Shown here: in pieces, positions 4,410 through 43,594 of the stretch
Layout: the number at the start of each line of letters is the position of its first letter
Numbering within the stretch: the first letter of the stretch is position 1
Assembly (NCBI GenBank): GCA_017418905.1
Contig: JAFOMO010000025.1
Location: forward strand, 1 to 43,970
Direction of reading: 5' to 3'
DNA from: Clostridia bacterium
GTDB taxonomy: Bacteria > Bacillota > Clostridia > Oscillospirales > Acutalibacteraceae
Length of the DNA stretch: 43,970 nt
Position numbers and translations under genes: made by a program
Notes under the pieces: model-generated
The model's input: the letters and a program-made list of their open reading frames with translations, nothing else
What the model was told of the DNA's origin: nothing
The model's database searches: none

Positions 4410-4985
4410 CTACCTGACTTCGATATGAGGTGCTGCCTGTTTGAGATATTCTCTCATTTCTGCCCATTCTCTTGCAAATTCTCTGCTGGTAGGCAAGTAA
4501 CATAGCTTATAGGTCTGACTGCCAACATCCGCCGCAAGATAACGTCTTTGAAACACAGTACCCTCAATAGTATAACGATCCATTGTAACATACAGCACGG
4601 ATATTTCATCATACAACAGCATTACGCCCAGACCCTTGCCTATTATACAATCGTTTCCCAACAATACTGTATCTTTGAATTTGAACGTACCCTTTTGCAT
4701 ATCAATAACAGCATAGTCAAGCCAGCCTTTAATTTTAAGATAGTTTACTCTTCCTGTAAAGACCCTGCGAGGGTAGTATATCATTTTGTAAAAGAAAAAT
4801 CCACCTGTACCAAACAATATTACAAACGCCATAAGTCCGGATATTATCAGATCGTCTGTATCACTTTCTTCAGAGCCGAGAAAAATCAATATAGTCAATA
4901 CAGGTTCCAATACCACAAAATATAATAATGCAAGCGAAAAAAACTTTTTTCTGCTTGTTAAGCAAAAACTTTCTAAATATTCCAT
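4410..4985 (-). CDS. 2-TM membrane protein of unknown function, paralogue-like to 6935-7531
   Basis: 191 aa with two N-terminal hydrophobic helices, then a beta-rich domain (FKFKDTVLLGNDCIIGKG...EWAEMREYLKQAAPHIEV). This is colinear with the 6935-7531 product. Confidence 0.55.
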   Translation of the reverse strand: MEYLESFCLTSRKKFFSLALLYFVVLEPVLTILIFLGSEESDTDDLIISGLMAFVILFGTGGFFFYKMIYYPRRVFTGRVNYLKIKGWLDYAVIDMQKGTFKFKDTVLLGNDCIIGKGLGVMLLYDEISVLYVTMDRYTIEGTVFQRRYLAADVGSQTYKLCYLPTSREFAREWAEMREYLKQAAPHIEVR

Positions 4986-6934: not shown

Positions 6935-7531
6935 TCATTCATAACTTTCTTCCACAAAAACAGTCTTTGTTTGGATATGTCGCTTAACCTTAATATCCGG
7001 ATTTACGGATGTAAGCTTTTTAGCTAAGTTCTCCCATTCGGACTGATAGTAATAATCCGAATGATAAAACAATATATCCATTCCGTTTTCAATTAAATAA
7101 TAATCCCATTCTATATCAGTTACTGCCCCTGTATATATGATCTTGACAATCTTCATACCATTCAGAGAAGAAATAGGCAGTACTCCTACCCTATTGAGAC
7201 CAAATATAAATTTATCTCCTATAAGGATTCCGTTTTTAAAATATGTCTCGGCATGAGTAAAATCATCTTCCGCCAGCTTTAATATACCTCGTTCTTTAAG
7301 CAGTTTCATATTCCTCTTATATTCTTTAAGTTGATAAGCATAAGAAAAATAATATTTATATACAACTATGATCCAAAGCACTATATCAATAACCACCAGC
7401 AAAGGCAGATTAGTAAAACTATCCTTTTTAAAAACGAGTAAGTATGTTAGGAATATCGGAAGGATCAAGGAAAATCCTATCTTAACGGAAGCACTGCCTA
7501 TATCGGGCTTTAAATATTTTTGTAATGTCAT
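6935..7531 (-). CDS. 2-TM membrane protein of unknown function, paralogue-like to 4410-4985
   Basis: 198 aa with two hydrophobic helices, then YFKNGILIGDKFIFG...EWENLAKKLTSVNPDIKV. Confidence 0.55.
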   Translation of the reverse strand: MTLQKYLKPDIGSASVKIGFSLILPIFLTYLLVFKKDSFTNLPLLVVIDIVLWIIVVYKYYFSYAYQLKEYKRNMKLLKERGILKLAEDDFTHAETYFKNGILIGDKFIFGLNRVGVLPISSLNGMKIVKIIYTGAVTDIEWDYYLIENGMDILFYHSDYYYQSEWENLAKKLTSVNPDIKVKRHIQTKTVFVEESYE

Positions 7532-8498: not shown

Positions 8499-10571
8499 TT
8501 ACATCGTTCTCAGTATCTGAGTAATAAGAGCATAATCATTTATAAACAATTCATTTTCATTAGCAAAGATCATAAGATAGCCTATTACTATTGTAATTAT
8601 AAAGATCACAGAAAGAGTTATATAATAACCCGATCTGAATCTGTGTGTCGATCCTGCGGCTATCTCAGCAAGCTTAAATAACACTATAATCGATACTATT
8701 CCCAGCGGCAGAAGAATATCAGAGACATATCTGTAATGAACGCCCGCTTTGCACATATTCAAAAATGCAACTATTATTACGCTTATAAAGAGAGTAAGCG
8801 TAAAATTGGTTTTAAACTTATCCTCTTTTTTCAGAGCGTAAGGCAGAAACAGCGAACCCCACATTACAGGATAATTAAACGCACCCATGCTGTATGCAAG
8901 ATATGTATATCGAGGATAACCCGAAAGAACCGTATTTGGCATATCAAAATAAGGGAATTTTGTTTTAAACTCTAAGGGCTGCAAAAAATAGTGAAATATC
9001 ATAAATGGAATATACCCTACAAGTATTTTATTTGCCTCTGCTGAACTTACCGTGATCTGATAAGTAAAACCAAATTCTAAAGGCGACGAAAAACGAGCAT
9101 AGTTGTATATCATTATCGAAACTGCACCTATCATTACAGGTACACCTATGCTGCAAAGATAAAGTATTTTATGTTTAACACTTATTTCTTTATCTTTCAA
9201 AAGCCACAGCAGAGGAGCGACTGCAGTCATACAATAAACGATCGTTCCGGGGCGTGACGCTGCCATAAGCACCACAAATGCACCTGTTATCACAAAATAC
9301 AACGTCTTTTTAAGAACACTCGTTTCGTAATACGCCTTTATAAGGAAAGCAAGATAACCGGCAACCGCAGTAATAGCAGATATTACTGCTATAAAATAAA
9401 AATACTTATCGGAAGCCAATGCAAATACAGATGAAGAAAGCCATATCACAGGCAAACCTGCTATAACAAAGATAAAAGGCGTATTTTTGCAAAAACGCTT
9501 TATTACCTCGCTGTACAATATGGTCATACATATTACGGCATATATCGCAGAGATAGTGCACGCCAGAACAGAGCCGGCAACCTTATGGGTCACAAGGAAC
9601 ACGGGAAAATATACCGTAAAGACAGGAGCAACACCAAAATATGAATAGAATTTTCCGTTGTAATATGCACGATCCCACTGATCGCCCGTCAGATGCGTAC
9701 TGTCTCTTTCGCTTCTGTCGTATGGATTTTGCATTTGTTCGTATTCCTCGGGAGAAAAGTTTACATTTATATAAAGTCTGCCCTCTTTGAACGATGAAAA
9801 CAATTGCTGATATTGATCCATAGTAACCTCGTTTTCGAGAGGGTATTCGTCAAGCATCGGTTTTTCGGTAACTTTCGAGATAAAAAATGAACTTCCAATC
9901 AATACAAAGCATGCAACCCCTGCCATTGCATATAGTATCAAATGATCTTTTCTGCTGAAATGCCATTTCCACGCTTTTAAAAATATACAGACGCAAGCAG
10001 ATATTAAAAATATCAATCTGATATAGCTTATATGAAAAGCTTGCGGCGAGTTTATCTTTATACTGTCTACTTCCATTGCATAATGATTATCAGAAGGAAA
10101 TCTGACCTCTAATGTACCTATATTTCCGTATGATCTTACATTATAATAGCTTTTAACATTATTACCTACAAAAATTTGCAGATTTGCTTTATTGTAATTA
10201 AGTCCGTCTTCATAAGCAAAATTATCATCAGTATAGGCTATTTCGGGATAATAGTATTCTTCTCCGCCTTGAGAAAACTCTATACAGACGTTATACAAAG
10301 GTACGTTTACATTCTCGAATCTAATCGTACCTTTGTTTATTTTCGCTCTCGGCTTATCGGTATACCTTACTTGAATATCATCAGAGTAATGTGCGAAGCT
10401 CAGATCCAAATCACATTCTTTGACATGAGAAAACATCATTGCAATAGCTGTATAGTTTGAGATGCAGATCTCGACAATTATACACAACACAAGCGACAAT
10501 ACAAGCCTCATCTTTCTGTTTTTCAGTACATCGGACAGCTTATCGAATGATTTTTTTGTTGATTCTTTCAT
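8499..10571 (-). CDS. large polytopic membrane protein, possibly a GT-C-fold glycosyltransferase (function uncertain)
   Basis: About 690 aa. Layout is one N-terminal TM, a roughly 150-aa extracytoplasmic beta-rich domain, then at least 10 TM helices. A long loop reads YDRSERD...WDRAYYNGKFYSYFGVAP, which resembles ArnT/PMT-like loops. I moved the start from the TTG at 10604 to ATG 10571 (MKESTKK), preceded by AAGGGGA. Confidence 0.55.
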   Translation of the reverse strand: MKESTKKSFDKLSDVLKNRKMRLVLSLVLCIIVEICISNYTAIAMMFSHVKECDLDLSFAHYSDDIQVRYTDKPRAKINKGTIRFENVNVPLYNVCIEFSQGGEEYYYPEIAYTDDNFAYEDGLNYNKANLQIFVGNNVKSYYNVRSYGNIGTLEVRFPSDNHYAMEVDSIKINSPQAFHISYIRLIFLISACVCIFLKAWKWHFSRKDHLILYAMAGVACFVLIGSSFFISKVTEKPMLDEYPLENEVTMDQYQQLFSSFKEGRLYINVNFSPEEYEQMQNPYDRSERDSTHLTGDQWDRAYYNGKFYSYFGVAPVFTVYFPVFLVTHKVAGSVLACTISAIYAVICMTILYSEVIKRFCKNTPFIFVIAGLPVIWLSSSVFALASDKYFYFIAVISAITAVAGYLAFLIKAYYETSVLKKTLYFVITGAFVVLMAASRPGTIVYCMTAVAPLLWLLKDKEISVKHKILYLCSIGVPVMIGAVSIMIYNYARFSSPLEFGFTYQITVSSAEANKILVGYIPFMIFHYFLQPLEFKTKFPYFDMPNTVLSGYPRYTYLAYSMGAFNYPVMWGSLFLPYALKKEDKFKTNFTLTLFISVIIVAFLNMCKAGVHYRYVSDILLPLGIVSIIVLFKLAEIAAGSTHRFRSGYYITLSVIFIITIVIGYLMIFANENELFINDYALITQILRTM

Positions 10572-10595
10572 TTGTGATCCCCTTTTTATTATTGT

Positions 10596-10739
10596 TTTCT
10601 GCAATTCAAGCGAAGAATAATTTGTTCTGTATTAGGCACAATACCGCAGGAATACTGACGTATTTCAAGGTATTGTAACGACACACAGGGCAAATTAGGC
10701 GAGCATGAAAGTGCAAGTTATTTCTTGACGATTCCTTAG
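10596..10739 (+). repeat. intergenic structured repeat, copy A (family 1, 5'-truncated), sense strand +
   Basis: Positions 10601-10739 are the reverse complement of 36785-36923 with 134/139 identical bases. The copy contains the shared core CGCAGGAATACTGACGTATTTCAAGG (10645-10670) inside the hairpin 10637-10677. Confidence 0.85.
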
Positions 10740-10769: not shown

Positions 10770-10798
10770 TTGAAATAATTGGAACTATGTGTTAAAAT
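10770..10798 (+). promoter_or_regulatory. sigma-A-type promoter for the SulP transporter gene
   Basis: TTGAAA (10770-10775), 17 nt ending in TGT, TAAAAT (10793-10798). The ATG is 33 nt downstream. Confidence 0.4.
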
Positions 10799-10830
10799 TA
10801 TTAAAAATCACTAAGAAATTAGGTGCAATT

Positions 10831-12834
10831 ATGCTGAAAGGTCTTAAAACTTGCAAAACAAGCAATCTGAAAAATGATATTATCAGCGGTATAATTATTG
10901 CTCTCGTATCTATTCCCATATCTATGGGATATGCTCAGATAGCCGGTCTGCCTGCTCAATACGGATTATACGGTTCTGTTATACCTGTCTTGATGTTTGC
11001 TGTATTCTCGTCATCTCCGCAATACATATTCGGCGTTGACGCAGCCCCTGCTGCACTTGCGGGCGGTACGCTTGTTTCTATGGGTATTACTTTTGAGTCG
11101 CCGCAGGCAATTGAGTTTGTACCTTTAATAACATTTTTTACGGGTATATGGCTTTTGCTGTTTACTCTTCTCAGATTCGGCACGCTCACCCAATTTGTTT
11201 CTTCACCTGTAATGGGCGGCTTTATCAGTGGAATATGCGCAACGATTATACTGATGCAAACACCGAAGCTTTTCGGCGGCGGTGCAGGTATCGGAGAGCT
11301 TTTTGAGCTTATCGCTCACATTATAGCAGAATTAAAAAATAATTTCAACTTTTTGTCGCTTGTAGTATCAGTTTTTTGTATTTTTATCATTCAGCTTTTC
11401 AAAAAAATAACGCCGAAACTTCCCGTATCGGCATTTGTAATGGTTTTAGGCGCATTATTTCAGCTGATCTTTGACTACTGTGGCAAATGGAACATAAAAA
11501 CACTTACTGCAGTTTCTAAGGGTATAATTGCCCCTTCTCTTCCGACTGTGAAATACGAATATATATTGACTGCACTGTTATCTTCATTTTCAATAGCTGT
11601 TGTTATAGGCTCGGAAACACTGCTTGCAGAAAAAAACTTCGCTCAGAAAAACGGATACAAAATAGATGACAACAGCGAGCTGTTAGCTTTTTCGGTGTGT
11701 AATATATCAGCCGCATTTTTTGGTGTATGCCCCGTAAACGGCAGTGTATCGAGAACCTCAATGAACGATCAGTTCGGTGGAAAAAGTCAAATAACATCAA
11801 TCACTGCAGCACTTGTAATGACTGCTATACTTTACTTTACAACGGGATTTATTAGCTTTCTGCCTGTTCCCGTATTGACCTCTATCGTTGTATGCGCACT
11901 ATGGAGCGGTACTGAGTTTCATCTTGCAAAGAAGCTGTTTAAAAGCAGCCGAAAGGAGTTCTTCATCTTCTGCGCCGCATTTATCGGCGTTCTGATATTT
12001 GGAACTATCTACGGCGTATTAATCGGAGTTATACTTTCGTTTTTCAATATTGTTATTCGAGAAAGCAAGCCGTCTACCGCATTTCTGGGAGTAATACCGG
12101 GAAGAAATCATTTTTATAATCTCAAAACCTACGCAAAATCAAGACCTATAAAAAATGCTGTAATATACCGCTTTAAGGGCAATCTGTTTTTTGCTAATAT
12201 AGATATTTTCAGAGAAGAAATAGAACAAGCTATTCAAAGCGATACAAAATACTTTATCGTCGACGCAAGCGGAATAAGCAGTATAGACTCTACCGCAGCA
12301 CAAGCATTAGACAGTATGTACAGAGATCTGTCTGAGAAGGGTATAAAATTCTTTTTGGTAGAACATATTGCAAAGGTAAACGAAGAAATAAGAAACTACG
12401 GTTTCGGGCATATTATCGAGAGCGGCGGTGTTCGCATAACCATTACAGACGCTCTGAGCGCAGTTGGACTTAACAGACCTTTTCCATTATGCAACAAATA
12501 TAATAATTCCGAGGTAAATGAAGATACGGCGATTATACAGGAATTTGAATGGGCATTCGGCAAAGACGCTCGTCACTACATCGACATTTATACGGAAAAG
12601 ATACTGCGAAACGCAAAAGCAATTAATCCGAAAGCAGGTAATGCAGATGAAGATTTTGCCCATTTATGGGACGGCATATCTCCTATCAGCGATCATATCC
12701 TGCTTGATTACATAGAGGGCAAAACTCACGAGTTATCAGAGAAGTATGAAATAGACGAAAATATTATACGTCTTATTCTCAAGAAACACCGCAGTGATCT
12801 TGTAGAGAGTGGATACAAAGAAAACGCTAATTGA
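10831..12834 (+). CDS. SulP-family anion transporter with STAS domain and an extra roughly 120-aa C-terminal extension
   Basis: The SulP membrane core (PISMGYAQIAGLP, GVDAAPAALA, multiple TM helices) is followed by a STAS-like block (VIYRFKGNLFFANIDIF...IVDASGISSIDSTAAQAL). I moved the start to ATG 10831, with AGGTG 5 nt upstream. Confidence 0.85.
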   Translation: MLKGLKTCKTSNLKNDIISGIIIALVSIPISMGYAQIAGLPAQYGLYGSVIPVLMFAVFSSSPQYIFGVDAAPAALAGGTLVSMGITFESPQAIEFVPLITFFTGIWLLLFTLLRFGTLTQFVSSPVMGGFISGICATIILMQTPKLFGGGAGIGELFELIAHIIAELKNNFNFLSLVVSVFCIFIIQLFKKITPKLPVSAFVMVLGALFQLIFDYCGKWNIKTLTAVSKGIIAPSLPTVKYEYILTALLSSFSIAVVIGSETLLAEKNFAQKNGYKIDDNSELLAFSVCNISAAFFGVCPVNGSVSRTSMNDQFGGKSQITSITAALVMTAILYFTTGFISFLPVPVLTSIVVCALWSGTEFHLAKKLFKSSRKEFFIFCAAFIGVLIFGTIYGVLIGVILSFFNIVIRESKPSTAFLGVIPGRNHFYNLKTYAKSRPIKNAVIYRFKGNLFFANIDIFREEIEQAIQSDTKYFIVDASGISSIDSTAAQALDSMYRDLSEKGIKFFLVEHIAKVNEEIRNYGFGHIIESGGVRITITDALSAVGLNRPFPLCNKYNNSEVNEDTAIIQEFEWAFGKDARHYIDIYTEKILRNAKAINPKAGNADEDFAHLWDGISPISDHILLDYIEGKTHELSEKYEIDENIIRLILKKHRSDLVESGYKENAN

Positions 12835-13363
12835 TCTTATACGTTTTAATGAAATTCTTTGGTTCAATTCCTCGTTTTATACATTCAAGAAATATCTTTG
12901 CACAAGCTATGCTGTCACTGTCTGCTTTGTGATGATCCAATTCAATATTCAGGTAATCGCAAAGAATATTCAGCTTATGATTTTCAAGCGTTGGAAAGCA
13001 TTTTTTGCTCATACGAACAGTACAGGCGTAATCAAAATCTGATATATCTTTAATGTTATATGCATTTATACATTTTGCGAGTACACCCATATCAAATGTG
13101 GCATTGTGGGCTATCAGAATTCCATTTTTAAAAATAGGCTCAAGCTCTTTCCACACTGCCTTGAAATTTGGAGAATTTTTTACCTTTTCTTTGTTGATCC
13201 CTGTAAGCTCGATATTGAATGAAGAAAAATATGTTTCGGGGTTTACAAGAGATGAATATGTATCAACTATTTTTCCGTTTTCTATAATTGCCGCTCCTAT
13301 TGAGCTTATACGATCGTTTCTGGCGTTTGGTGTTTCTACATCAAACGCTATATATCTTTTCAT
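12827..13363 (-). CDS. stand-alone DEDDh 3'-5' exonuclease, PolC-exo/DnaQ-like
   Basis: ExoI FDVET, ExoII AHNATFDMGVL, ExoIII HHKADSDSIA. The block NHKLNILCDYLNIELDHH is colinear with the PolC exonuclease domain. The start overlaps the upstream stop (ATGA at 13360-13363). Confidence 0.8.
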   Translation of the reverse strand: MKRYIAFDVETPNARNDRISSIGAAIIENGKIVDTYSSLVNPETYFSSFNIELTGINKEKVKNSPNFKAVWKELEPIFKNGILIAHNATFDMGVLAKCINAYNIKDISDFDYACTVRMSKKCFPTLENHKLNILCDYLNIELDHHKADSDSIACAKIFLECIKRGIEPKNFIKTYKIN

Positions 13364-15942
13364 TTAAGATTCCTCTTTTCTTTGTTTTCAGATAGTATAG
13401 TCATTATACTTGCTTCGGCAGTTCTAACCTCTGACAGAAACGTCTGTGAAGGTACTCTCAATGCACCGCTTCCAAGTATTATCAGCTGTTCCATACCGTC
13501 TGATGTGACTACTCTTACCCTATTGTTCTTTGCGAGCTTATAAGCGGCTTTTTCAATGTATGTATCTGCTGTTTCGGCTTCTTTTGTATACACTATCGTT
13601 ATTCCGCCTATACGTTCTGTTTCGCCCTTGCCGCCCTTGACCTTATATGCGTCAAACACAAGTATGAGTCTGCACCCCTTATACCCCTGATAATTGCAAA
13701 GTATGTCAATAAGTCTGTCTCTTGCGGAAGAAATATCTGCTCTGGCAAGACTTTTCAACTCTTCCCAAGAAAAGATCACGTTGTAGCCGTCTACAAGAAG
13801 ATAGTCGTTACCGTCAAAGCCCGATTTTCCCGGACGCTTGTATTTCTCGAAATTTTCCGACTGATACTTCTTTGCGGAAACAGCGGTATTTTTCGGTTTT
13901 ACAGCACCGTATGTTCTCTCGAATATTTGCATTAATTCTTTATCTGAAGCTTGCGGTCGGCTTTTGTATTCGGACTCAATATTATCCTCTGCAACTTCAT
14001 CGCCGTTTTCTTTCAGTACATAGTCAAGGTGCATATACTTCTCGGTTTCCTGCCAATTTACGGTAAACCCTGCACCGTGAGAACAAAACACCGAGTCGGC
14101 AGTGTTTTCTATATCGCTGTCGGGATCATAACCGATATTCTCTATAACTTCGTCTGAATTATGACAAGGCTCATAACCGTTGAGTATGCACATAAGTCTG
14201 CCCTTGCCCTTGGTATACTTCAACACCTCACTGTGATAATTCCTCATACAATAAACAGGAGCTTTTCCTGTCAATACGGAAATATCACCTTTAATTACAG
14301 GGGGCTCAAAGCTTCCGTACATCTTCTGAATATCAGACATTGCTCTTCCTGTATTTTCCGAGGGTACTTCAAGGGTAAACTCATACACCGGCTCTAACAG
14401 AACGCTTTCAGCTTTTCTCAATCCGTGACGAACTGCACGATATACCGCCTGTCTGAAATCTCCTCCTTCGGTGTGCTTTAAGTGAGCTTTTCCCGTAAGG
14501 AGCGTTATTTCTATATCGGTAACCGGCGAACCTGTCAATACGCCCTTATGCGTTCTCTCGCTGATGTTTGTAAGAATAAGCCTTTGCCAGTTTCTGTTTA
14601 GAACATCTTCACTGCAAATGGAATTTATTATAATTCCACTATCTTTTTTACCCGGTTTAAGCCTTAAATGCACCTCGGCATAATGACGGAGCGGCTCAAA
14701 ATGACCTACTCCCTCTACTGTTGAAGCGATCGTTTCTTTATATATAATATTGCCTTGTCCGAAAGCAACTGAAATTCCGAACTTATCTTTAATAAGTGCT
14801 TTCAAGACTTCAAGCTGTATTTCTCCCATTAGCTGAATCTGTATCTCTCCTAAGGTATCGTTCCACAATACATTTAACATAGGGTCTTGATGTTCGAGTA
14901 TTCTGAGCTTATCGAGCAGCTTATGAGAATCCACTCCCTGAGGCGGTATGATCCGATATGTCAAAACAGGCGATAATACAGGCAAAGACGAGTCGTTTTC
15001 AATTCCAAGACCCTCTCCCGAACGTGCGCCCGTAATTCCTGTTACAGCACAGATAGTGCCTGCGTCTGCGGATTCCGTCCGGGTATACTTATTACCCGAA
15101 TATATGCGTATCTGATTTACCTTTTCACCTTCAGGGCTGTTTTTGGTTTTAAGTATTTGCCGAACTTGCAGACTGCCGCCTGTTATCTTCATAAATGTTA
15201 AAGGGGCGTTTTGTTCGTCCTGCGATATTTTATAGACCTTTGCGCCGAACTCAGAGGGATAATCGGGCATTTTTGTATATTTACAGAGAATATTTACAAG
15301 TGTATCTATACCCTCAAATTTCAGTGCAGAACCAAAAACACAGGGAAATACTCCTCTTTTTGATATTTCTTCGGTGATAGTATTTGAACCCACTGTAAAA
15401 TTTTCGTTATACTCTTCAAACAGATCATCACTGCACAAGGCTATATTTTCGAAGAAAATATAGCTGTTATCATTTGTAAAATCTACAATGTTGTCGCTTA
15501 AATTAAACTTTAAGCTGCCCAATACTGTATTGTTATCTTTATCTGTAAGATCCATTTTGTTTACGAACAGAAAACAAGGAATATTATACTTTTTCAATAA
15601 TTTCCAAAGAGTGGAAGTATGACTTTGAACGCCTTCTGTTCCGCTTATTACAAGAACGGCATAATCAAGCACTTGAAGTGTTCGCTCGGTTTCGGCAGAA
15701 AAATCAATATGTCCCGGAGTATCGACAAGTGTTATTTCGGTATCATCATATTTTAAAACGGCTTGTTTTGAGAATATTGTTATGCCCCTTTTCCGTTCAA
15801 GCTCATAATTATCTAAAAAAGATGTTCCGTGATCTACTCTTCCAAGCTTGTTGATACTGCCGCTGCTGTATAATAATGCCTCTGATAATGTCGTTTTGCC
15901 TGAGTCAACGTGTGCAAGTATTCCTACCGATATTCTTTTCAT
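13360..15942 (-). CDS. Tet(M)/EF-G-like translational GTPase fused to a C-terminal Rae1/YacP-type NYN ribonuclease domain
   Basis: G1 AHVDSGKT, G3 DTPGH, G4 NKMD, with colinearity to ribosomal-protection/EF-G-type factors over about 640 aa. Residues 713-860 (nt 13363-13806) read DYLLVDGYNVIF..LVFDAYKVKG..YTKEAETADTYIEKAA..VVTSDGMEQLIILGSGALRV, which matches YacP/Rae1. Confidence 0.85.
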   Translation of the reverse strand: MKRISVGILAHVDSGKTTLSEALLYSSGSINKLGRVDHGTSFLDNYELERKRGITIFSKQAVLKYDDTEITLVDTPGHIDFSAETERTLQVLDYAVLVISGTEGVQSHTSTLWKLLKKYNIPCFLFVNKMDLTDKDNNTVLGSLKFNLSDNIVDFTNDNSYIFFENIALCSDDLFEEYNENFTVGSNTITEEISKRGVFPCVFGSALKFEGIDTLVNILCKYTKMPDYPSEFGAKVYKISQDEQNAPLTFMKITGGSLQVRQILKTKNSPEGEKVNQIRIYSGNKYTRTESADAGTICAVTGITGARSGEGLGIENDSSLPVLSPVLTYRIIPPQGVDSHKLLDKLRILEHQDPMLNVLWNDTLGEIQIQLMGEIQLEVLKALIKDKFGISVAFGQGNIIYKETIASTVEGVGHFEPLRHYAEVHLRLKPGKKDSGIIINSICSEDVLNRNWQRLILTNISERTHKGVLTGSPVTDIEITLLTGKAHLKHTEGGDFRQAVYRAVRHGLRKAESVLLEPVYEFTLEVPSENTGRAMSDIQKMYGSFEPPVIKGDISVLTGKAPVYCMRNYHSEVLKYTKGKGRLMCILNGYEPCHNSDEVIENIGYDPDSDIENTADSVFCSHGAGFTVNWQETEKYMHLDYVLKENGDEVAEDNIESEYKSRPQASDKELMQIFERTYGAVKPKNTAVSAKKYQSENFEKYKRPGKSGFDGNDYLLVDGYNVIFSWEELKSLARADISSARDRLIDILCNYQGYKGCRLILVFDAYKVKGGKGETERIGGITIVYTKEAETADTYIEKAAYKLAKNNRVRVVTSDGMEQLIILGSGALRVPSQTFLSEVRTAEASIMTILSENKEKRNLK

Positions 15943-37296: not shown

Positions 37297-40200
37297 TCAG
37301 AAAAATGTCATCTGATTTGATTCAGGAAGATCTCCGAATGCCCCAATTGACTTTAAAGTTTCAATTACTGTCTTTGATACTGTGGCCTGCGTCTGTATAT
37401 CTTCAATAGACAAAAACTTGCCTTTCTTTACAACATCAACAAGACTTTGGGCAGCAGCTTCACCTACGCCGGGCATTGAACAGTAAGGAAGTCTTAATGC
37501 ATCGCCTTCAATGACAAATTTTTTCGCCTCCGATTTAAATATGTTGATCGGCAGCACCTTTATTCCCCTGGCAAGCATTTCGTTAACTATTTGCAATGTA
37601 GCAAGGTCTGTTTTGTCCTTCGCCGTTGCGTTATTGCCTTTTTCAAGAATGTTCTTTATTTTTTCTGCCACGGCAGGTTTTCCGGCAAGTGCAGATTCTG
37701 CGTCAAAGCTTTCTCCCCGAACAGTAAAATATGCTGCATAATAAGCAACCGGTCTATGTACTTTATACCATCCAAGACGAAGTGTTGAGATCATGTATGC
37801 GGCTGCATGTGCTTTAGGGAACATATATTTGATCTTCATACACGAATCAATATACCACTGAGGAACATTATGTTCTTTCATAGCATTTATATGTTCTTCT
37901 GTGAGAAGCTTTGTTGCTTTTCCCTTTCGCACTATCTCCATTATCTTAAATGCCATTTTCGGTTCAAGACCTTTATGAAGCAGATAAGTCATAATACTGT
38001 CTCTTGTTCCTATTACCTCAGAAATTGTACAAGTACCGTTTTTAATTAGATCTGCAGCATTTCCTATCCATACGTCTGTACCATGTGACAGACCCGATAT
38101 TTGCAGTAGGTCGGAAAATGTTTTCGGCTGAGACTCTACAAGCATCTGACGTACAAAACTTGTTCCTGATTCCGGAAGAGAAAATGTTCCCGTTTGAGAA
38201 TCAATATCTTCGGGCTTTACGTTTAATGCTTTTGTTGACGTAAAAAGTGACATTACCTCCGGATCGCTCATTGATACATCCATAACGCTTATACCTGTAA
38301 ATTCTTCGAGATAATGGTATATAGTAGGAACATCATGACCGAGCTCGTCAAGCTTGCAGATCGTGTCGTGAATTGAATGGAAATCAAAGTGTGTTGTAAT
38401 ATTATCCGATTTCTGATCGTTTGCGGGACGCTGTATCGGACAAAAATCAAATACGTTCATACCTCTGGGCACAACTACCATGCCGCCCGGGTGCTGACCT
38501 GTTGTTCTTTTTACTCCTGTGCAGCCTGCCGACAATCTTTCTTCTTCTGCGGCGTTATAATTTTTTCCTGTCTGCTCTTCATATTTTTTTACATATGCAA
38601 AAGCAGTTTTGTCTGCAACGGTTGCGATCGTTCCTGCCTTGAACACATTCTCTTTACCAAACAAAGTTTCGGTATATCTGTGTGCCTGTGACTGATATTC
38701 ACCCGAGAAATTTAAGTCAATATCGGGCACTTTGTCACCATCAAAGCCCAGGAATGTTTCAAAGGGAATCTCGTGACCGTCACGGTGGTATGGTGTACCG
38801 CATTTAGGACAATTTTTTGCAGGAAGGTCAAAGCCGGAACCAACACTTCCGTCTGTAATGAACTCGCTGTTTTTACACTCGGGATTAGGACAAATATAAT
38901 GCGGACAAAGAGGATTTACCTCTGAAATACCCGACATTGTTGCAACGAAGGACGAACCTACCGAACCTCGCGAACCTACAAGATAACCGTGAGCCTCAGA
39001 GTCTGCAACAAGCTTTTGCGCCGTCATATACAAAACCGAGAATCCGTGTTTTGTAATAGAACCGAGTTCTCTGTCAAGACGTGCCTGCACTATTTCTGGC
39101 AAAGGATCGCCGTACATATCTTTTGCACGCTTCCATGTTATTGTGGTGAGCTGTTCTTCTGCGCCGTCAATAAAAGGCGGAAAATTTCCGTCCGGTATAG
39201 GCTTTATCTGCTCTATCATATCTGCGATCTTATTAGTGTTTTCAACGACTATCTCATACGCTTTTTCTTTTCCGAGGTATTCAAACTCATGCAGCATTTC
39301 TTTTGTTGTTCTCAAATAAAGCGGTGCCTGATGGTCTGCGTCTTCAAAGCCCTTGCTATTCATAATGATCTTTCTGTACTCAGACATATGTGGATCGAGA
39401 AAATGAACGTCACAAGTAGCAACTACGGGGATATTGAGATCTTCTCCGAGCCTGATGATAGTTTTGTTAAATTCTATTATTTCATCAATAGATTTAACGT
39501 AATTATTTCTTACCATAAATTCATTATTGCCCAAAGGCTGAATTTCAAGGTAATCATAAAATGATGCTATTTCTTTAAGCTCTTCATACGATTTTTCTCT
39601 TGATGAAACTGCATGATACAACTCGCCTATCTCGCAGGCACTGCCAATTATCAGTCCCTCCCTGTGACGCATTAAAACAGATTTGGGTATTCTCGGTCTG
39701 CGGTAAAAATAGTTTAAATGTGCATATGATATTAGCTTATACAAATTTCTGAGTCCTGTCAGATTTTTTACCAATATGATCTGGTGATACGCTTTAAGCT
39801 TTTTCAGCTCCTCATTTGAGAGCATTGAACAGTTTTCACAAATTGCGTCTTCGCCCTCAAAAGGCTTACTGTATTCAGAAACTGTGTCATCTACATAATA
39901 AGCCTCTGTACCATATATTACTTTGATATTGCCGCCGTTTTTCTGAATATCGTTCAAGGTATTCATAGCTTCGGGGAATGCCTGTGCAACACCGTGATCT
40001 GTAATAGCGATAGCAGGCATACCCCACTCATACGCACGCATAATAAGATCTTTTGCAGGCGTTACACCGTCCATATCCGACATATTGGTATGTAAATGCA
40101 GCTCGCAGCGTTTTTTCTCTTCTTTATCAACTACTTTTACCTTTTGAGCAGTTGCAATGCTGGAGGCGTGCATTTCTACGATCCTGTCGAAATCATCATA

Positions 40201-41157
40201 CTTAACTTCGCCTTTAACAATGATCGTTGTATTTGCTTTCAGCAATTCAAGCGGTTTGCATTTTTCAATAAGCTCAAAAACCTTAACATTGATTGAGCTT
40301 GTGTAATCCGTTATCTTTATATTAAAAATATATCTTTTTGAATCACGGGTCAAACGGAAATCTATACCAAAAATGTCCCCCCATATCATGGTATTACCTG
40401 TTTCGGCTGTAAGCGTATTTATGGGCACAACATCTACTTTTGTTATAGCTCTTCCGAAAAGCGGCTTCATTGATCTATCGGCTAATACAGGAAATAAAGA
40501 ATCTCCCTCTCTTATCTCGATCTCGGGCTTTGCCTTTTCTGCTTCTTGTTTATGTTTATCAGCAGATGACATTGATTCCTCGTATGTCTCATATTCTTCT
40601 ACTTGCTTTATCTGCTCTTCTTTTCTCTGCCGGTTCTCGATTCTCTCCTGCATTTTTATGTATTCGGCATTGTCAACACTCATTGACGTTAAGCCGTCAA
40701 ATTCAACGGTATAATGACAGCCGAACATATTCTCAATTGCCTTTGAGATCAGCAATGACGCATTCTGACCTTTTATTACAGCTTCGCCGCCGTGAAACAA
40801 TGTAATAATAAACCTGTCACCGTCAATTATTGCTTTTGCGTCTTTAAACGTTCCATTGAGCGTTGCATTATCTCTTTTTAAGTGTAAAACTATCTCATTG
40901 AAATAATCGGCAGAGAAAGACTCCTTCGGAAAAACAGATCTTATTCTTACCGACGAAAGCTCCAAACTTCTTACAAGCTCTCTCTCAAGTGACAGTATAT
41001 CGCTTTGTAAAACAAGCTTATCGAATTTTATAACAGCAGTCATTGCATTTGAGCTTCTGTTAATTTTTATACTCATATCAGCAGCTTCTCCGCATTTGAG
41101 CCTGCCTACAAGCTCAGGAGAAGCATAGCTGTCAAAAACGTCTAAAATATTACTCAT
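37297..41157 (-). CDS. polC: PolC-type DNA polymerase III alpha subunit lacking the internal 3'-5' exonuclease domain
   Basis: PolC N-terminal domain and OB fold. PHP motifs (ELHLHTNMSDMDG, AIAITDHGV). Zn-finger (CPHYICPNPECKNSEF...CPKCGTPY). Polymerase core (PDIDLNFSGEYQ, GQHPGGMVVVP). HhH tail. The protein is 1286 aa. Only about 37 aa sit where the exonuclease domain is normally inserted. Confidence 0.95.
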   Translation of the reverse strand: MSNILDVFDSYASPELVGRLKCGEAADMSIKINRSSNAMTAVIKFDKLVLQSDILSLERELVRSLELSSVRIRSVFPKESFSADYFNEIVLHLKRDNATLNGTFKDAKAIIDGDRFIITLFHGGEAVIKGQNASLLISKAIENMFGCHYTVEFDGLTSMSVDNAEYIKMQERIENRQRKEEQIKQVEEYETYEESMSSADKHKQEAEKAKPEIEIREGDSLFPVLADRSMKPLFGRAITKVDVVPINTLTAETGNTMIWGDIFGIDFRLTRDSKRYIFNIKITDYTSSINVKVFELIEKCKPLELLKANTTIIVKGEVKYDDFDRIVEMHASSIATAQKVKVVDKEEKKRCELHLHTNMSDMDGVTPAKDLIMRAYEWGMPAIAITDHGVAQAFPEAMNTLNDIQKNGGNIKVIYGTEAYYVDDTVSEYSKPFEGEDAICENCSMLSNEELKKLKAYHQIILVKNLTGLRNLYKLISYAHLNYFYRRPRIPKSVLMRHREGLIIGSACEIGELYHAVSSREKSYEELKEIASFYDYLEIQPLGNNEFMVRNNYVKSIDEIIEFNKTIIRLGEDLNIPVVATCDVHFLDPHMSEYRKIIMNSKGFEDADHQAPLYLRTTKEMLHEFEYLGKEKAYEIVVENTNKIADMIEQIKPIPDGNFPPFIDGAEEQLTTITWKRAKDMYGDPLPEIVQARLDRELGSITKHGFSVLYMTAQKLVADSEAHGYLVGSRGSVGSSFVATMSGISEVNPLCPHYICPNPECKNSEFITDGSVGSGFDLPAKNCPKCGTPYHRDGHEIPFETFLGFDGDKVPDIDLNFSGEYQSQAHRYTETLFGKENVFKAGTIATVADKTAFAYVKKYEEQTGKNYNAAEEERLSAGCTGVKRTTGQHPGGMVVVPRGMNVFDFCPIQRPANDQKSDNITTHFDFHSIHDTICKLDELGHDVPTIYHYLEEFTGISVMDVSMSDPEVMSLFTSTKALNVKPEDIDSQTGTFSLPESGTSFVRQMLVESQPKTFSDLLQISGLSHGTDVWIGNAADLIKNGTCTISEVIGTRDSIMTYLLHKGLEPKMAFKIMEIVRKGKATKLLTEEHINAMKEHNVPQWYIDSCMKIKYMFPKAHAAAYMISTLRLGWYKVHRPVAYYAAYFTVRGESFDAESALAGKPAVAEKIKNILEKGNNATAKDKTDLATLQIVNEMLARGIKVLPINIFKSEAKKFVIEGDALRLPYCSMPGVGEAAAQSLVDVVKKGKFLSIEDIQTQATVSKTVIETLKSIGAFGDLPESNQMTFF

Positions 41158-41171
41158 TTAATCCTTCCTTA

Positions 41172-42215
41172 TTACATCTTTTCCACTTCTTCCAATAAAC
41201 ACTCTACCAATAATTCTTCGGGTACTTTCTTTACGATCTCTCCCTTTTTAAATATAAGTCCTTCACCTTTGCCACCTGCAATGCCTATATCTGCTTCTCT
41301 TGCTTCTCCGGGGCCGTTGACAATACAGCCCATTACGGCAACGGTAATATCTTTCTTGCAGTCACGCAGTCTGTCTTGCACCTCGTTTGCAATTGATATA
41401 AGATCGATTTTTGTTCGTCCGCAGGTCGGGCACGAAATAAACTTGACTCCGCTTGTATCAACGTCTATCGCTTTAAGTATATCCTTTGCGGCATACACCT
41501 CTTTTACAGGGTCATCTGTAAGCGATACTCTTACTGTATCGCCTATACCTCTCAACAAAAGCGAGCCTAAACCTGCGGCAGATTTTATCAAGCCCATGCG
41601 CTCTGTACCTGCTTCGGTTACTCCGAGATGCAACGGATAATCACACTTCTCAGATGCCAGCTCATAAGCCTTTATCATAGTGCCGACTGTGGAAGACTTC
41701 ATTGACAAAACTATATCGGTAAAATCAAAGCGTTCAAGCAGTGACGCATGATAAAGTGCGCTTTCGCACAAAGCTTCAGCCGTAGGAGAACCGTATTTCT
41801 GCAAAATATGCTTTTCAAGCGAGCCTGAATTTACACCGATACGAATAGGAATATTCTTTTCTCTGCAAGCCTTTACAACAGCATAAACTCTGTCATCGCT
41901 GCCGATATTGCCGGGATTGATGCGTATTTTATCAATACCTGCGGCAGCGGATTCAAGTGCAAGGCGATAATCAAAATGAATATCGGCAACAAGCGGTACT
42001 GTGATCTTTGATTTTATTGCATCTATAAGCCGTACTGCCTGCATATCGGGAACTGCTATCCTGATTATCTGACAGCCTGCTTTTTCAAGCTTTACTGCCT
42101 GTTCGACACTTCCCTCTATATTATCCGCCGGTATATTCAGCATTGACTGAACAGTAATGGGCGCACCGCCGCCGATCTGCACATTGCCGGCTTTTACGTA
42201 TTTTTTACTTCCCAT
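41172..42215 (-). CDS. ispG: 4-hydroxy-3-methylbut-2-en-1-yl diphosphate synthase
   Basis: VQIGGGAPITVQSM, RINPGNIG, and the C-terminal 4Fe-4S ligands CPTCGRT...GCIVNGPGE. I moved the start to ATG 42215, with GAGG 7 nt upstream. Confidence 0.95.
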   Translation of the reverse strand: MGSKKYVKAGNVQIGGGAPITVQSMLNIPADNIEGSVEQAVKLEKAGCQIIRIAVPDMQAVRLIDAIKSKITVPLVADIHFDYRLALESAAAGIDKIRINPGNIGSDDRVYAVVKACREKNIPIRIGVNSGSLEKHILQKYGSPTAEALCESALYHASLLERFDFTDIVLSMKSSTVGTMIKAYELASEKCDYPLHLGVTEAGTERMGLIKSAAGLGSLLLRGIGDTVRVSLTDDPVKEVYAAKDILKAIDVDTSGVKFISCPTCGRTKIDLISIANEVQDRLRDCKKDITVAVMGCIVNGPGEAREADIGIAGGKGEGLIFKKGEIVKKVPEELLVECLLEEVEKM

Positions 42216-42226
42216 AATCACACCTC

Positions 42227-43594
42227 TTATCCACCTATTCCTGTGCCTGTGGCAATTCTTACTATATCATTAATTGTAATAACTGCTATAAAGCCTAACA
42301 GCAGTATAAATCCTGCCGCATGTACCCAGGCTTCGTATTTTTGCGGTACAGGCTTTCTGATTATCAGCTCAATGAGCATAAAAACAAATCTGCCGCCGTC
42401 AAGTGCAGGCAATGGCAAAACATTTACAATACCCAAATTAACTGTTATTATCATGAGCATATACAGAATATTATTTACAGCGTCTCCAAAGCTCGATTCA
42501 AGCCCTGCCTGTGCTGCCTGTGTTACAACAGACGCTGCACCTACCGGTCCTGCAATATCATTCATACCGTAAGTTCCTGTTGCAAGACCGTACAGGCTGA
42601 TCCAGATCATTTTTACAACAGAAACAGTACCCTTGACAGATTCTGAAATCAAAGTACCGAAAGTTTTATCAATTGCTGTAACAGAAAAATCAAGCGATAT
42701 GGCAGGATTACCGTCATCTCCCGGATAGGTGAAGAAATCTACATTATTGAGCATTATTTCTTCGTTATTTCTCAAAACCTTTACATCCGTTCTGAATCTT
42801 TTTCTCTCGGGCATATACTCGCTTTCCTCCGGAACGTATTCTACCTTTGAAAGAGTATTGACCTGCTCGATCGTTTCATTTGTTATTTTGTCGGCTTCAG
42901 ACTTATCTGCGGCATTGTTGAGCTTTTCTATACCGCTGTTAAAAGCTTGTGATATTGCTTTCAGCTCTTCTTCTGTATAATCCTCGGCTTTCAATGCACT
43001 GTATTGTCTTGCAAGAGTAAAACCGCAGTCTTCTTTATATATTGAAAAGTCTTCTCCGTCTACTATCTGTAAAGGTATCATAACCAAAGCAAAGGAAATA
43101 TCTCTCGAACAATTAATATCATAGCCGCCGATCTCGAGCAGCTTATCGCCTGCCTGCAAACCTGATTTTGAAGTAAATGCTGTTTGTGCAAAGCCTGAAA
43201 TTGTAGTTGATGAAAAATAAGGCGACTGTACAAGAAGGATCATCATCATTATCAAGCCGAGTATGATATTATTAAACGCACCTGCCAATACAACTATCAT
43301 TCTCTGCCAGACAGGTTTATTAATTAACGCACGCTCGTTGTCACTTTCTTCGTTTTCGCCCTCCATAGCACAAAAACCGCCTATCGGCAGTAATCTTAAA
43401 GAATATTCAGTTTCGCCTTTTTTGACGTGTAATATTTTCGGTCCCATTCCAAGAGCAAACTCATTGACCTGAACGCCAAATTTCTTTGCGGTTATGAAAT
43501 GTCCGAACTCGTGAATAAATATTATCAGCTCAAAAATCAAAACACCTATCACGATCAATGCAATTTTTGTAAGAATAAGATCAGATCCTTCCAA
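42227..43594 (-). CDS. rseP: RIP site-2 metalloprotease RseP/RasP (M50 family)
   Basis: HEFGHF zinc motif in TM1, a central PDZ-like region (GLQAGDKLLEIGG), and the C-terminal NVLPLPALDGGR motif. The start codon is uncertain: TTG at 43594 has no clear ribosome-binding site. Confidence 0.85.
   Translation of the reverse strand: MEGSDLILTKIALIVIGVLIFELIIFIHEFGHFITAKKFGVQVNEFALGMGPKILHVKKGETEYSLRLLPIGGFCAMEGENEESDNERALINKPVWQRMIVVLAGAFNNIILGLIMMMILLVQSPYFSSTTISGFAQTAFTSKSGLQAGDKLLEIGGYDINCSRDISFALVMIPLQIVDGEDFSIYKEDCGFTLARQYSALKAEDYTEEELKAISQAFNSGIEKLNNAADKSEADKITNETIEQVNTLSKVEYVPEESEYMPERKRFRTDVKVLRNNEEIMLNNVDFFTYPGDDGNPAISLDFSVTAIDKTFGTLISESVKGTVSVVKMIWISLYGLATGTYGMNDIAGPVGAASVVTQAAQAGLESSFGDAVNNILYMLMIITVNLGIVNVLPLPALDGGRFVFMLIELIIRKPVPQKYEAWVHAAGFILLLGFIAVITINDIVRIATGTGIGG

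Follow-up and report, generated by a model that had tools for sequence, protein, structure and literature searches.

PolC-type replicases have as their hallmark a DEDDh 3′–5′ exonuclease domain inserted in the PHP domain. Some members of the family are built without this domain and are referred to below as exo-less. In the survey of Timinskas et al. (NAR 2014, PMC3919608), 6% of PolCs were without the Exo insertion, a result that the authors called surprising, and their summary table gives 16% exo-less proteins within the Clostridia/Negativicutes group. These PolCs were found in Clostridia and Negativicutes, where PolC is paired with DnaE1, the one exception being an extra copy in Thermotogae (PMC3919608). 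The entries of Table S1 for Acidaminococcus fermentans (1191 amino acids, aa) and Acidaminococcus intestini (1210 aa) consist of an N-terminal domain, OB fold, PHP domain, Pol3 core and helix-hairpin-helix (HhH) region, with a 9/9 PHP site (PMC3919608). Here we describe a PolC of this type, encoded in a stretch of 43,970 nucleotides (nt) from a gut or rumen Clostridia bacterium (GenBank assembly GCA_017418905.1, contig JAFOMO010000025.1); we call this whole stretch the window. Its polC gene (37297..41157, minus strand) is an uninterrupted open reading frame (ORF) for a 1286-aa PolC-type DNA polymerase III alpha subunit without the DEDDh insertion. An earlier note on this DNA, made from the sequence alone, pointed out the missing domain and raised the question whether exo-less PolC had already been described for the lineage. 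The class is the one described by Timinskas et al.; the window protein adds a lineage to it and is not new.

Comparison with the A. fermentans protein (YP_003399045.1, 1191 aa) shows the same architecture, the same set of PHP metal ligands (HHDHEHCDH), a C-terminal clamp motif in both, and Clostridia as the host class. The two differ at the site of the missing domain, where the window PolC has a 33-residue linker with SKPFEGEDAICENCS and the Acidaminococcus junction is shorter. They differ also in lineage, as the window PolC belongs to an uncultured Acutalibacteraceae-like clade of 39% GC and stems from an independent loss. A short linker likewise replaces the exonuclease domain within PHP in the ΔN ΔExo form of Geobacillus kaustophilus PolC (PDB 3F2B, 3F2C, 3F2D). 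The ΔN ΔExo protein was engineered for crystallography, whereas the window PolC is a natural, conserved gene product that keeps its N-terminal domain. Mycobacterium tuberculosis DnaE1 and Thermus thermophilus Pol III alpha resemble it in being C-family polymerases to which no DEDDh proofreader is bound and in which the nine-residue PHP site is intact, and they serve as the working model proposed here. These two are DnaE1-type enzymes, in which PHP exonuclease activity has been measured; for exo-less PolCs such activity is a prediction. The last comparison is with Pol III epsilon, a stand-alone DEDDh exonuclease. The earlier note proposed that a 178-aa exonuclease, encoded elsewhere in the window, might in the same way serve a C-family polymerase. 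In epsilon a clamp motif is present, and a C-terminal tail binds to the PHP domain of alpha; the 178-aa protein is a catalytic domain only.

Architecture and relatives of the exo-less PolC

A Pfam scan of the window PolC, one of the checks suggested in the earlier note, identified DNA_pol3_a_NII (residues 84-201), the OB fold (272-334), PHP (352-534), DNA_pol3_alpha (669-859), DNA_pol3_finger (954-1094) and HHH_6 (1198-1280), and no RNase_T/DEDDh domain. NF001688, the NCBIfam PolC equivalog, scored 1498.6 bits (cut-off 873), with its match split over two stretches, the best of which pairs residues 444-1286 with profile positions 602-1444. Profile positions 423-589, which the stand-alone exonuclease matches, have no counterpart in the PolC. 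The score for TIGR01405 was 1377.4 bits (cut-off 1043). When the protein was aligned with reference PolCs, a second suggested check, ~200 exo-region columns present in full-length relatives were cleanly missing between YGTEAYYVDD and YHQIILV. Together, the Pfam scan, the split NF001688 match and the missing columns confirm that the exonuclease domain is absent. Regular-expression searches for the Exo motifs FD.ET, HN[AV].FD and H.A..D gave no match anywhere in the protein, which bears out the earlier statement that FDVETTG, HNAxFD and HxAxxD do not occur in it. Furthermore, when the six frames of the window were searched by tblastn with a PolC exo domain, the stand-alone gene was the only match, and hence there is no frameshifted exo remnant.

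In other respects the protein has the features of a PolC: it matches the equivalog models, follows the PolC domain order and ends in a PolC-type clamp motif. The polymerase catalytic motif PDIDLNF (38707..38727, minus strand; residues 811-817) was placed by motif search and by alignment to the palm of G. kaustophilus PolC. The C-terminus reads ...SNQMTFF, in which QMTFF (37300..37314, minus strand; residues 1282-1286) is a beta-clamp-binding motif of the PolC type. Extreme C-termini among the PolC entries of Timinskas Table S1 include QITFF, QLSFF and QIELF (PMC3919608).

The position of the gene is also that of polC orthologs, within the order dxr-rseP-ispG-polC. Directly upstream lies ispG (41172-42221, minus strand), assigned by synteny, and upstream of ispG lies rseP (42227-43594, minus strand; product Peptidase_M50). 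The order rseP-GcpE-polC is likewise found beside full-length PolC in relatives (loci L007-L009) and beside exo-less PolCs of two clades (L097-L099). Given this conserved synteny, the window gene is the orthologous primary polC. By phylogeny and synteny, the window protein is a PolC ortholog of non-canonical, exo-less architecture, the departure being the hallmark DEDDh insertion that its PHP domain lacks.

Close relatives share this architecture. In a collection of 5.8 billion proteins, 31 of the 120 best PolC clusters have no exonuclease domain. Their sources are ENA, NCBI, JGI and Logan, and the contigs that carry exo-less relatives reach 201 kb. All but two of the 31 clusters (29) are 71-95% identical to the window PolC and fall in the same clade; the window PolC and these 29 clusters were monophyletic in 30/30 neighbour-joining bootstraps (1264 shared columns). 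One member of the window PolC's 90%-identity cluster is annotated Acutalibacteraceae, and spo0A is present in the window, consistent with a host of the class Clostridia. Related contigs stem from rumen metagenome samples.

We also surveyed the presence of the exonuclease domain more widely, as the earlier note had advised, by exhaustive search and clustering at 50% identity. Exo-less proteins made up 23 of the 130 near-full-length PolC representatives. They have 11-61 residues between the flanking PHP ligands, in linkers that show no sequence relationship to one another. A second exo-less clade (30/30 bootstraps) consists of P0089 and P0117 and is 69% identical to full-length PolCs versus 59-63% to the window clade. 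A third, small group (P0415, P0565-P0567) is listed among full-length PolCs of Hydrogeniiclostridium, Caproicibacter and Caproiciproducens. As a single group, the exo-less sequences were monophyletic in 0/30 bootstraps. It follows from these data that exo loss is common and has happened many times.

The same searches turned up several unusual PolCs. Four representatives (P0432, P0453, P0491, P0494 and P0523 are listed) have 142-184 residues inserted where the exo domain would sit; BLAST detects no exo domain in these inserts, which may be degenerate exonuclease domains. In P0523 (1178 aa), the exo domain and the PHP nonad are both missing (HRSLENADQ). The PolC match in Bacillus sp. FJAT-42315 (L042, 10526-15852) is broken by ~2.8 kb between the residues aligned with window PolC positions 1122 and 1110, and this interruption may reflect an intein or mobile insertion within polC.

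The PHP domain as a candidate proofreader

At the usual exo-insertion point, the window PolC has a linker of 33 residues (425-457; 39787..39885, minus strand), the translation of which, TVSEYSKPFEGEDAICENCSMLSNEELKKLKAY, is exactly as the earlier note quoted it. The linker joins the N-terminal half of the PHP domain (39886..40104, minus strand; residues 352-424), with ligands H354, H356, D363, H388 and E418, to the C-terminal half (39403..39786, minus strand; residues 458-585), with ligands H458, C508, D583 and H585. The nonad HHDHEHCDH is complete, with 9/9 metal ligands, as in the described exo-less class. The gap between E418 and H458 is 39 residues, compared to at least 185 in exo-containing representatives. 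Within the exo-less clade the linker motif SkP..geD.iceNCs is kept, its N and C being invariant in 30 sequences; in the window this motif lies at 39820-39870 (minus strand), PolC residues 430-446. As we read the alignment, the linker is similar at its start to the strand by which full-length PolCs enter the exo domain (AFDDEFICFD); were this the case, the deletion would have started immediately ahead of the Exo I motif.

An AlphaFold2 model of residues 340-640 had a predicted TM score of 0.85, and its best structural matches were 3F2C and 3F2B, over 303 alignment columns. The linker was modelled mostly as coil plus one short helix; the blocks that cover it have mean values of 84, 68, 68 and 85 for the predicted local distance difference test. 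We considered the conserved CENC of the linker as a zinc knuckle and set it aside, on the grounds of these confidence values and of there being only two cysteines. 3F2B was also the best PDB sequence match of the whole PolC, in one stretch from residue 246 to 1286. Judging by this single-stretch match to a ΔExo protein and by the PHP model, the PolC fold tolerates exo loss.

The window PolC is a natural exo-less member of the Clostridia/Negativicutes minority class; we think it probable that its PHP domain proofreads and that the 178-aa exonuclease is a separate matter. The ancestor of the uncultured Acutalibacteraceae-like clade lost ~200 exo-region columns in frame, leaving the conserved 33-residue loop, while the N-terminal domain, OB fold, PHP, polymerase core with its catalytic aspartates, HhH and C-terminal clamp motif stayed intact. 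Neighbouring lineages lost the domain independently. Proofreading would then fall to the metal-dependent 3′–5′ exonuclease site of the PHP domain, all nine ligands of which are kept. Clostridial PolC would possess two potential proofreaders, PHP and DEDDh, with DnaE1 contributing a third, and hence the DEDDh module would be dispensable in this clostridial group and prone to repeated loss. Such redundancy would explain why DEDDh loss is seen only in organisms with both PolC and DnaE1. The 178-aa protein, for its part, would belong to a widespread, stand-alone DEDDh family and would not be the excised domain. Of the two alternatives offered in the earlier note, it is thus the second, that the replicase proofreads otherwise and the exonuclease is unrelated to it, that best fits the evidence.

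Several observations are in line with proofreading by PHP. The nonad is intact in 32/32 close exo-less PolCs. Among the representatives of the 50%-identity clusters, it is intact in 22/23 exo-less versus 64/103 exo-containing proteins (Fisher p = 0.001). A need to keep at least one proofreader would be expected to give this pattern, in which a PolC that lacks DEDDh hardly ever has a degenerate PHP site too, although phylogeny confounds the comparison; we assume that degenerate PHP sites are mostly those of Bacilli and Mollicutes. In Clostridium thermocellum, the PolC substitution C669Y, a PHP ligand mutation, creates a ~30-fold mutator, and C669 has been equated with the metal-binding C670 of G. 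kaustophilus PolC (bioRxiv 10.1101/2021.07.30.454558). C508 of the window PolC aligns with this ligand position. A 2026 survey attributes three 'active' proofreaders to most Clostridia and states that, in organisms with PolC and DnaE3, proofreading typically rests on the DnaQ domain of PolC (PMC12926913).

Other points weigh against this interpretation. We found no enzymological report of 3′–5′ exonuclease activity in the PHP domain of a PolC. Most clostridial PolCs that do contain the exo domain have a conserved nonad as well, and conservation alone is no proof of proofreading; the link of exo loss with an intact PHP site is, as said, confounded by phylogeny. The mutator effect of C669Y could be structural rather than due to loss of a catalytic ligand. 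The 44-kb window covers neither dnaE1 nor any second polC or other DEDDh genes. Finally, a second genome with an exo-less PolC also carries the stand-alone exonuclease (adjacent accessions MBQ3692553 and MBQ3692904), and no single genome with both the exonuclease and a full-length PolC was found among the matches listed.

A different explanation, which we regard as possible and rather unlikely, assigns the main burden of fidelity to DnaE1. With an active PHP site of its own, DnaE1 would be the principal high-fidelity replicase and PolC a reduced or specialised enzyme, whose exo loss is tolerated whether or not its PHP domain edits. This idea was raised by Timinskas et al., in whose data exo-less PolCs occur only where paired with DnaE1 (PMC3919608), and the 2026 survey ascribes an active PHP site to clostridial DnaE1 (PMC12926913). 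However, exo-less PolC has kept its clamp motif, its catalytic site and a perfect nonad in PHP, and with 71-95% identity inside the clade its divergence is no faster than that of full-length PolCs, both of which argue for an unchanged core role of PolC. Moreover, mutation of the PolC PHP domain alone yields the 30-fold mutator of C. thermocellum (bioRxiv 10.1101/2021.07.30.454558), indicating that PolC fidelity matters in an organism with PolC and DnaE1. dnaE1 itself lies outside the window.

The stand-alone exonuclease

The 178-aa protein is a stand-alone DEDDh 3′–5′ exonuclease (12827..13363, minus strand; RNase_T Pfam E = 1.2e-24), encoded 24 kb from PolC. Residues D8, E10, D91, H145 and D150 are the predicted catalytic set; they are invariant in 29 family members and supply the Exo I (DxE), Exo II (D) and Exo III (Hx4D) motifs. 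The headline of the earlier note was a split replicase, in which this enzyme proofreads for PolC in trans. It could do so either as the excised domain, relocated, or as a recruited epsilon-like subunit. The protein is indeed an intact enzyme of the group that includes DnaQ, PolC-exo and DinG-exo, and the presence of a homolog in another genome with an exo-less PolC speaks for such a role. Taking all the data below into account, we nonetheless consider a split replicase improbable.

Were the exonuclease an excised PolC domain, it should resemble the embedded domains of related PolCs. For calibration, we used PolC pairs that are 66-70% identical outside exo, which is the distance of the window PolC from its nearest full-length relatives; their exo domains average 61% identity, with a minimum of 46.5%. 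Identity of the exonuclease to the embedded exo domains of the 89 nearest full-length PolCs is 28-39% (at most 110 bits), well below both values. Its best 120 matches are all stand-alone proteins (177-262 aa, 52-90% identical). Likewise, among the matches listed in a genome scan, stand-alone loci are 45-54% identical to it and PolC-embedded domains at most 41%. The signatures differ too, with FDVETPN in the stand-alone family versus FDIETTG or FDTETTG in the aligned full-length PolCs. Judged by these comparisons, the exonuclease is evidently not an excised PolC domain, and the split-PolC proposal has no support as an account of its origin. The earlier description of the protein as PolC-exo-like and colinear holds in a generic sense and is not specific to PolC, as the family profile scores the DinG exonuclease domain about equally (84.7 bits, versus 78 bits for PolC exo domains and 42 bits for epsilon).

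A recruited trans-acting role is also unlikely. The protein scores below the cut-off of every epsilon model (NF004844, 158.9 versus 373; TIGR01406, 69.2 versus 222.7). On visual inspection, neither the 178-aa protein nor the family consensus has an epsilon-like, polymerase-binding C-terminal tail or a QxxLF clamp motif. The PolCs of the two exo-less genomes are 82% identical and their exonucleases 57%, whereas embedded proofreading domains at this PolC divergence are ~78% identical; thus the stand-alone gene evolves much faster than a replicative proofreader. The family is also distributed far more broadly than the window's exo-less clade. Its loci range from 39% to 66% GC, and named organisms that carry it include Acidaminobacterium chupaoyuni, Pseudoflavonifractor phocaeensis, Ruminococcaceae bacterium D16, Lawsonibacter sp. 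and Faecousia sp. A search seeded with the higher-GC exo-less P0415 did not return the PolCs of the exonuclease-carrying Pseudoflavonifractor, Ruminococcaceae bacterium D16 and Acidaminobacterium. Some family members (P0149, P0170, P0173, P0179, P0237 and P0166) have an extra domain, either DUF1653 (PF07866), in proteins 256-262 aa long, or a C4 zinc finger of the topoisomerase type (PF01396).

Gene neighbourhoods offer the split replicase no better footing. They differ in every lineage examined, comprising a MutT-like NUDIX gene; HSP33 and a methyltransferase; three small ORFs and an ABC transporter; or an epimerase-methyltransferase. In none of them is a core replisome gene adjacent to the exonuclease. 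In three other genomes family members adjoin the MutT-like NUDIX (NUDIX_4) gene, in either order (L001 5589-6564, L094 9612-10588 and L019 10001-10953). These pairs were found in A. chupaoyuni, on metagenome contigs that encode the exonuclease of Ruminococcaceae bacterium D16, and in a genome of an uncultured Oscillospiraceae. In L094 the ends of the two genes share 4 nt, and in L001 they are separated by 4 nt. That the pairing recurs is a hint of a function in nucleotide or DNA fidelity, and in mycobacteria there is precedent for a non-canonical DnaQ that acts beside a PHP proofreader. Both facts favour a contribution in trans, and between them they leave it a small probability. By analogy with the mycobacterial DnaQ, the stand-alone DEDDh family might conceivably be a loosely associated fidelity factor of Oscillospirales that let lineages discard the PolC exo domain; we hold this to be as improbable as the split replicase.

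The earlier note had also raised the possibility that the exonuclease belongs functionally to an operon with the adjacent gene. This gene (13360..15942, minus strand) encodes an 860-aa protein in which Pfam and NCBIfam identify an EF-G/Tet(M)-like GTPase fused to a NYN_YacP RNase domain, and its TGA stop overlaps the exonuclease ATG by 4 nt (ATGA). The GTPase-NYN gene was absent from all five exonuclease-homolog neighbourhoods examined, and was near the exonuclease in 1/13 genome loci among the matches listed, 5.5 kb away. We therefore rejected a conserved GTPase-NYN-exonuclease operon; the adjacency is local only. A defence-system reading of the exonuclease was set aside, as PADLOC gave it nothing more than generic DEDDh and PDC-S48 matches, and none for its GTPase-NYN neighbour. 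Within the latter, NYN_YacP occupies residues 715-857, and the GTPase part has all EF-G domains and scores 446 bits on the tet_protect model, under the cut-off of 775 bits. An ortholog with 50% identity over 858 aa is encoded at L012, in the genome of an uncultured Oscillospiraceae. From its domain content, the GTPase-NYN protein may be a ribosome-associated RNase.

Genomic setting and implications

Other window genes are those of an ordinary chromosome, among them spo0A and a nusB-xseA-ispA-dxs-tlyA-nadK-argR-recN block. One might take the short PolC for the product of a collapsed assembly or for an extra copy in decay, with its unusual length as the one point in favour. Both ideas are effectively refuted: the 1286-aa frame is uninterrupted and no exo remnant is left in any frame; 29 further clusters of the clade, drawn from four data sources and with contigs of up to 201 kb, have the same architecture; the locus is canonical; and all catalytic and PHP residues are conserved.

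On its other side, the exonuclease gene is approached by a convergent ORF for a SulP/STAS transporter (10789-12834, plus strand), with an 8-nt overlap of the 3′ ends; the transporter continues for ~140 residues beyond its STAS domain. A 701-aa protein (8499-10604, minus strand) has, on visual inspection, the look of a multi-pass membrane protein and no Pfam match at E ≤ 1e-5. Other ORFs with no Pfam match lie at 1219-2139, 2204-2767, 4410-4985 and 6935-7531.

For the window, the outcome is one more lineage in the class described in 2014, with the more exciting split-replicase reading removed. Exo-less PolCs are natural experiments on how much proofreading redundancy a bacterial replisome needs, and they are the best candidates for demonstrating a functional proofreader in the PHP domain of a PolC. 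They matter for estimates of the mutation rate in abundant Clostridia of gut and rumen, and may matter for the spectrum of PolC-targeted antibiotics as well.

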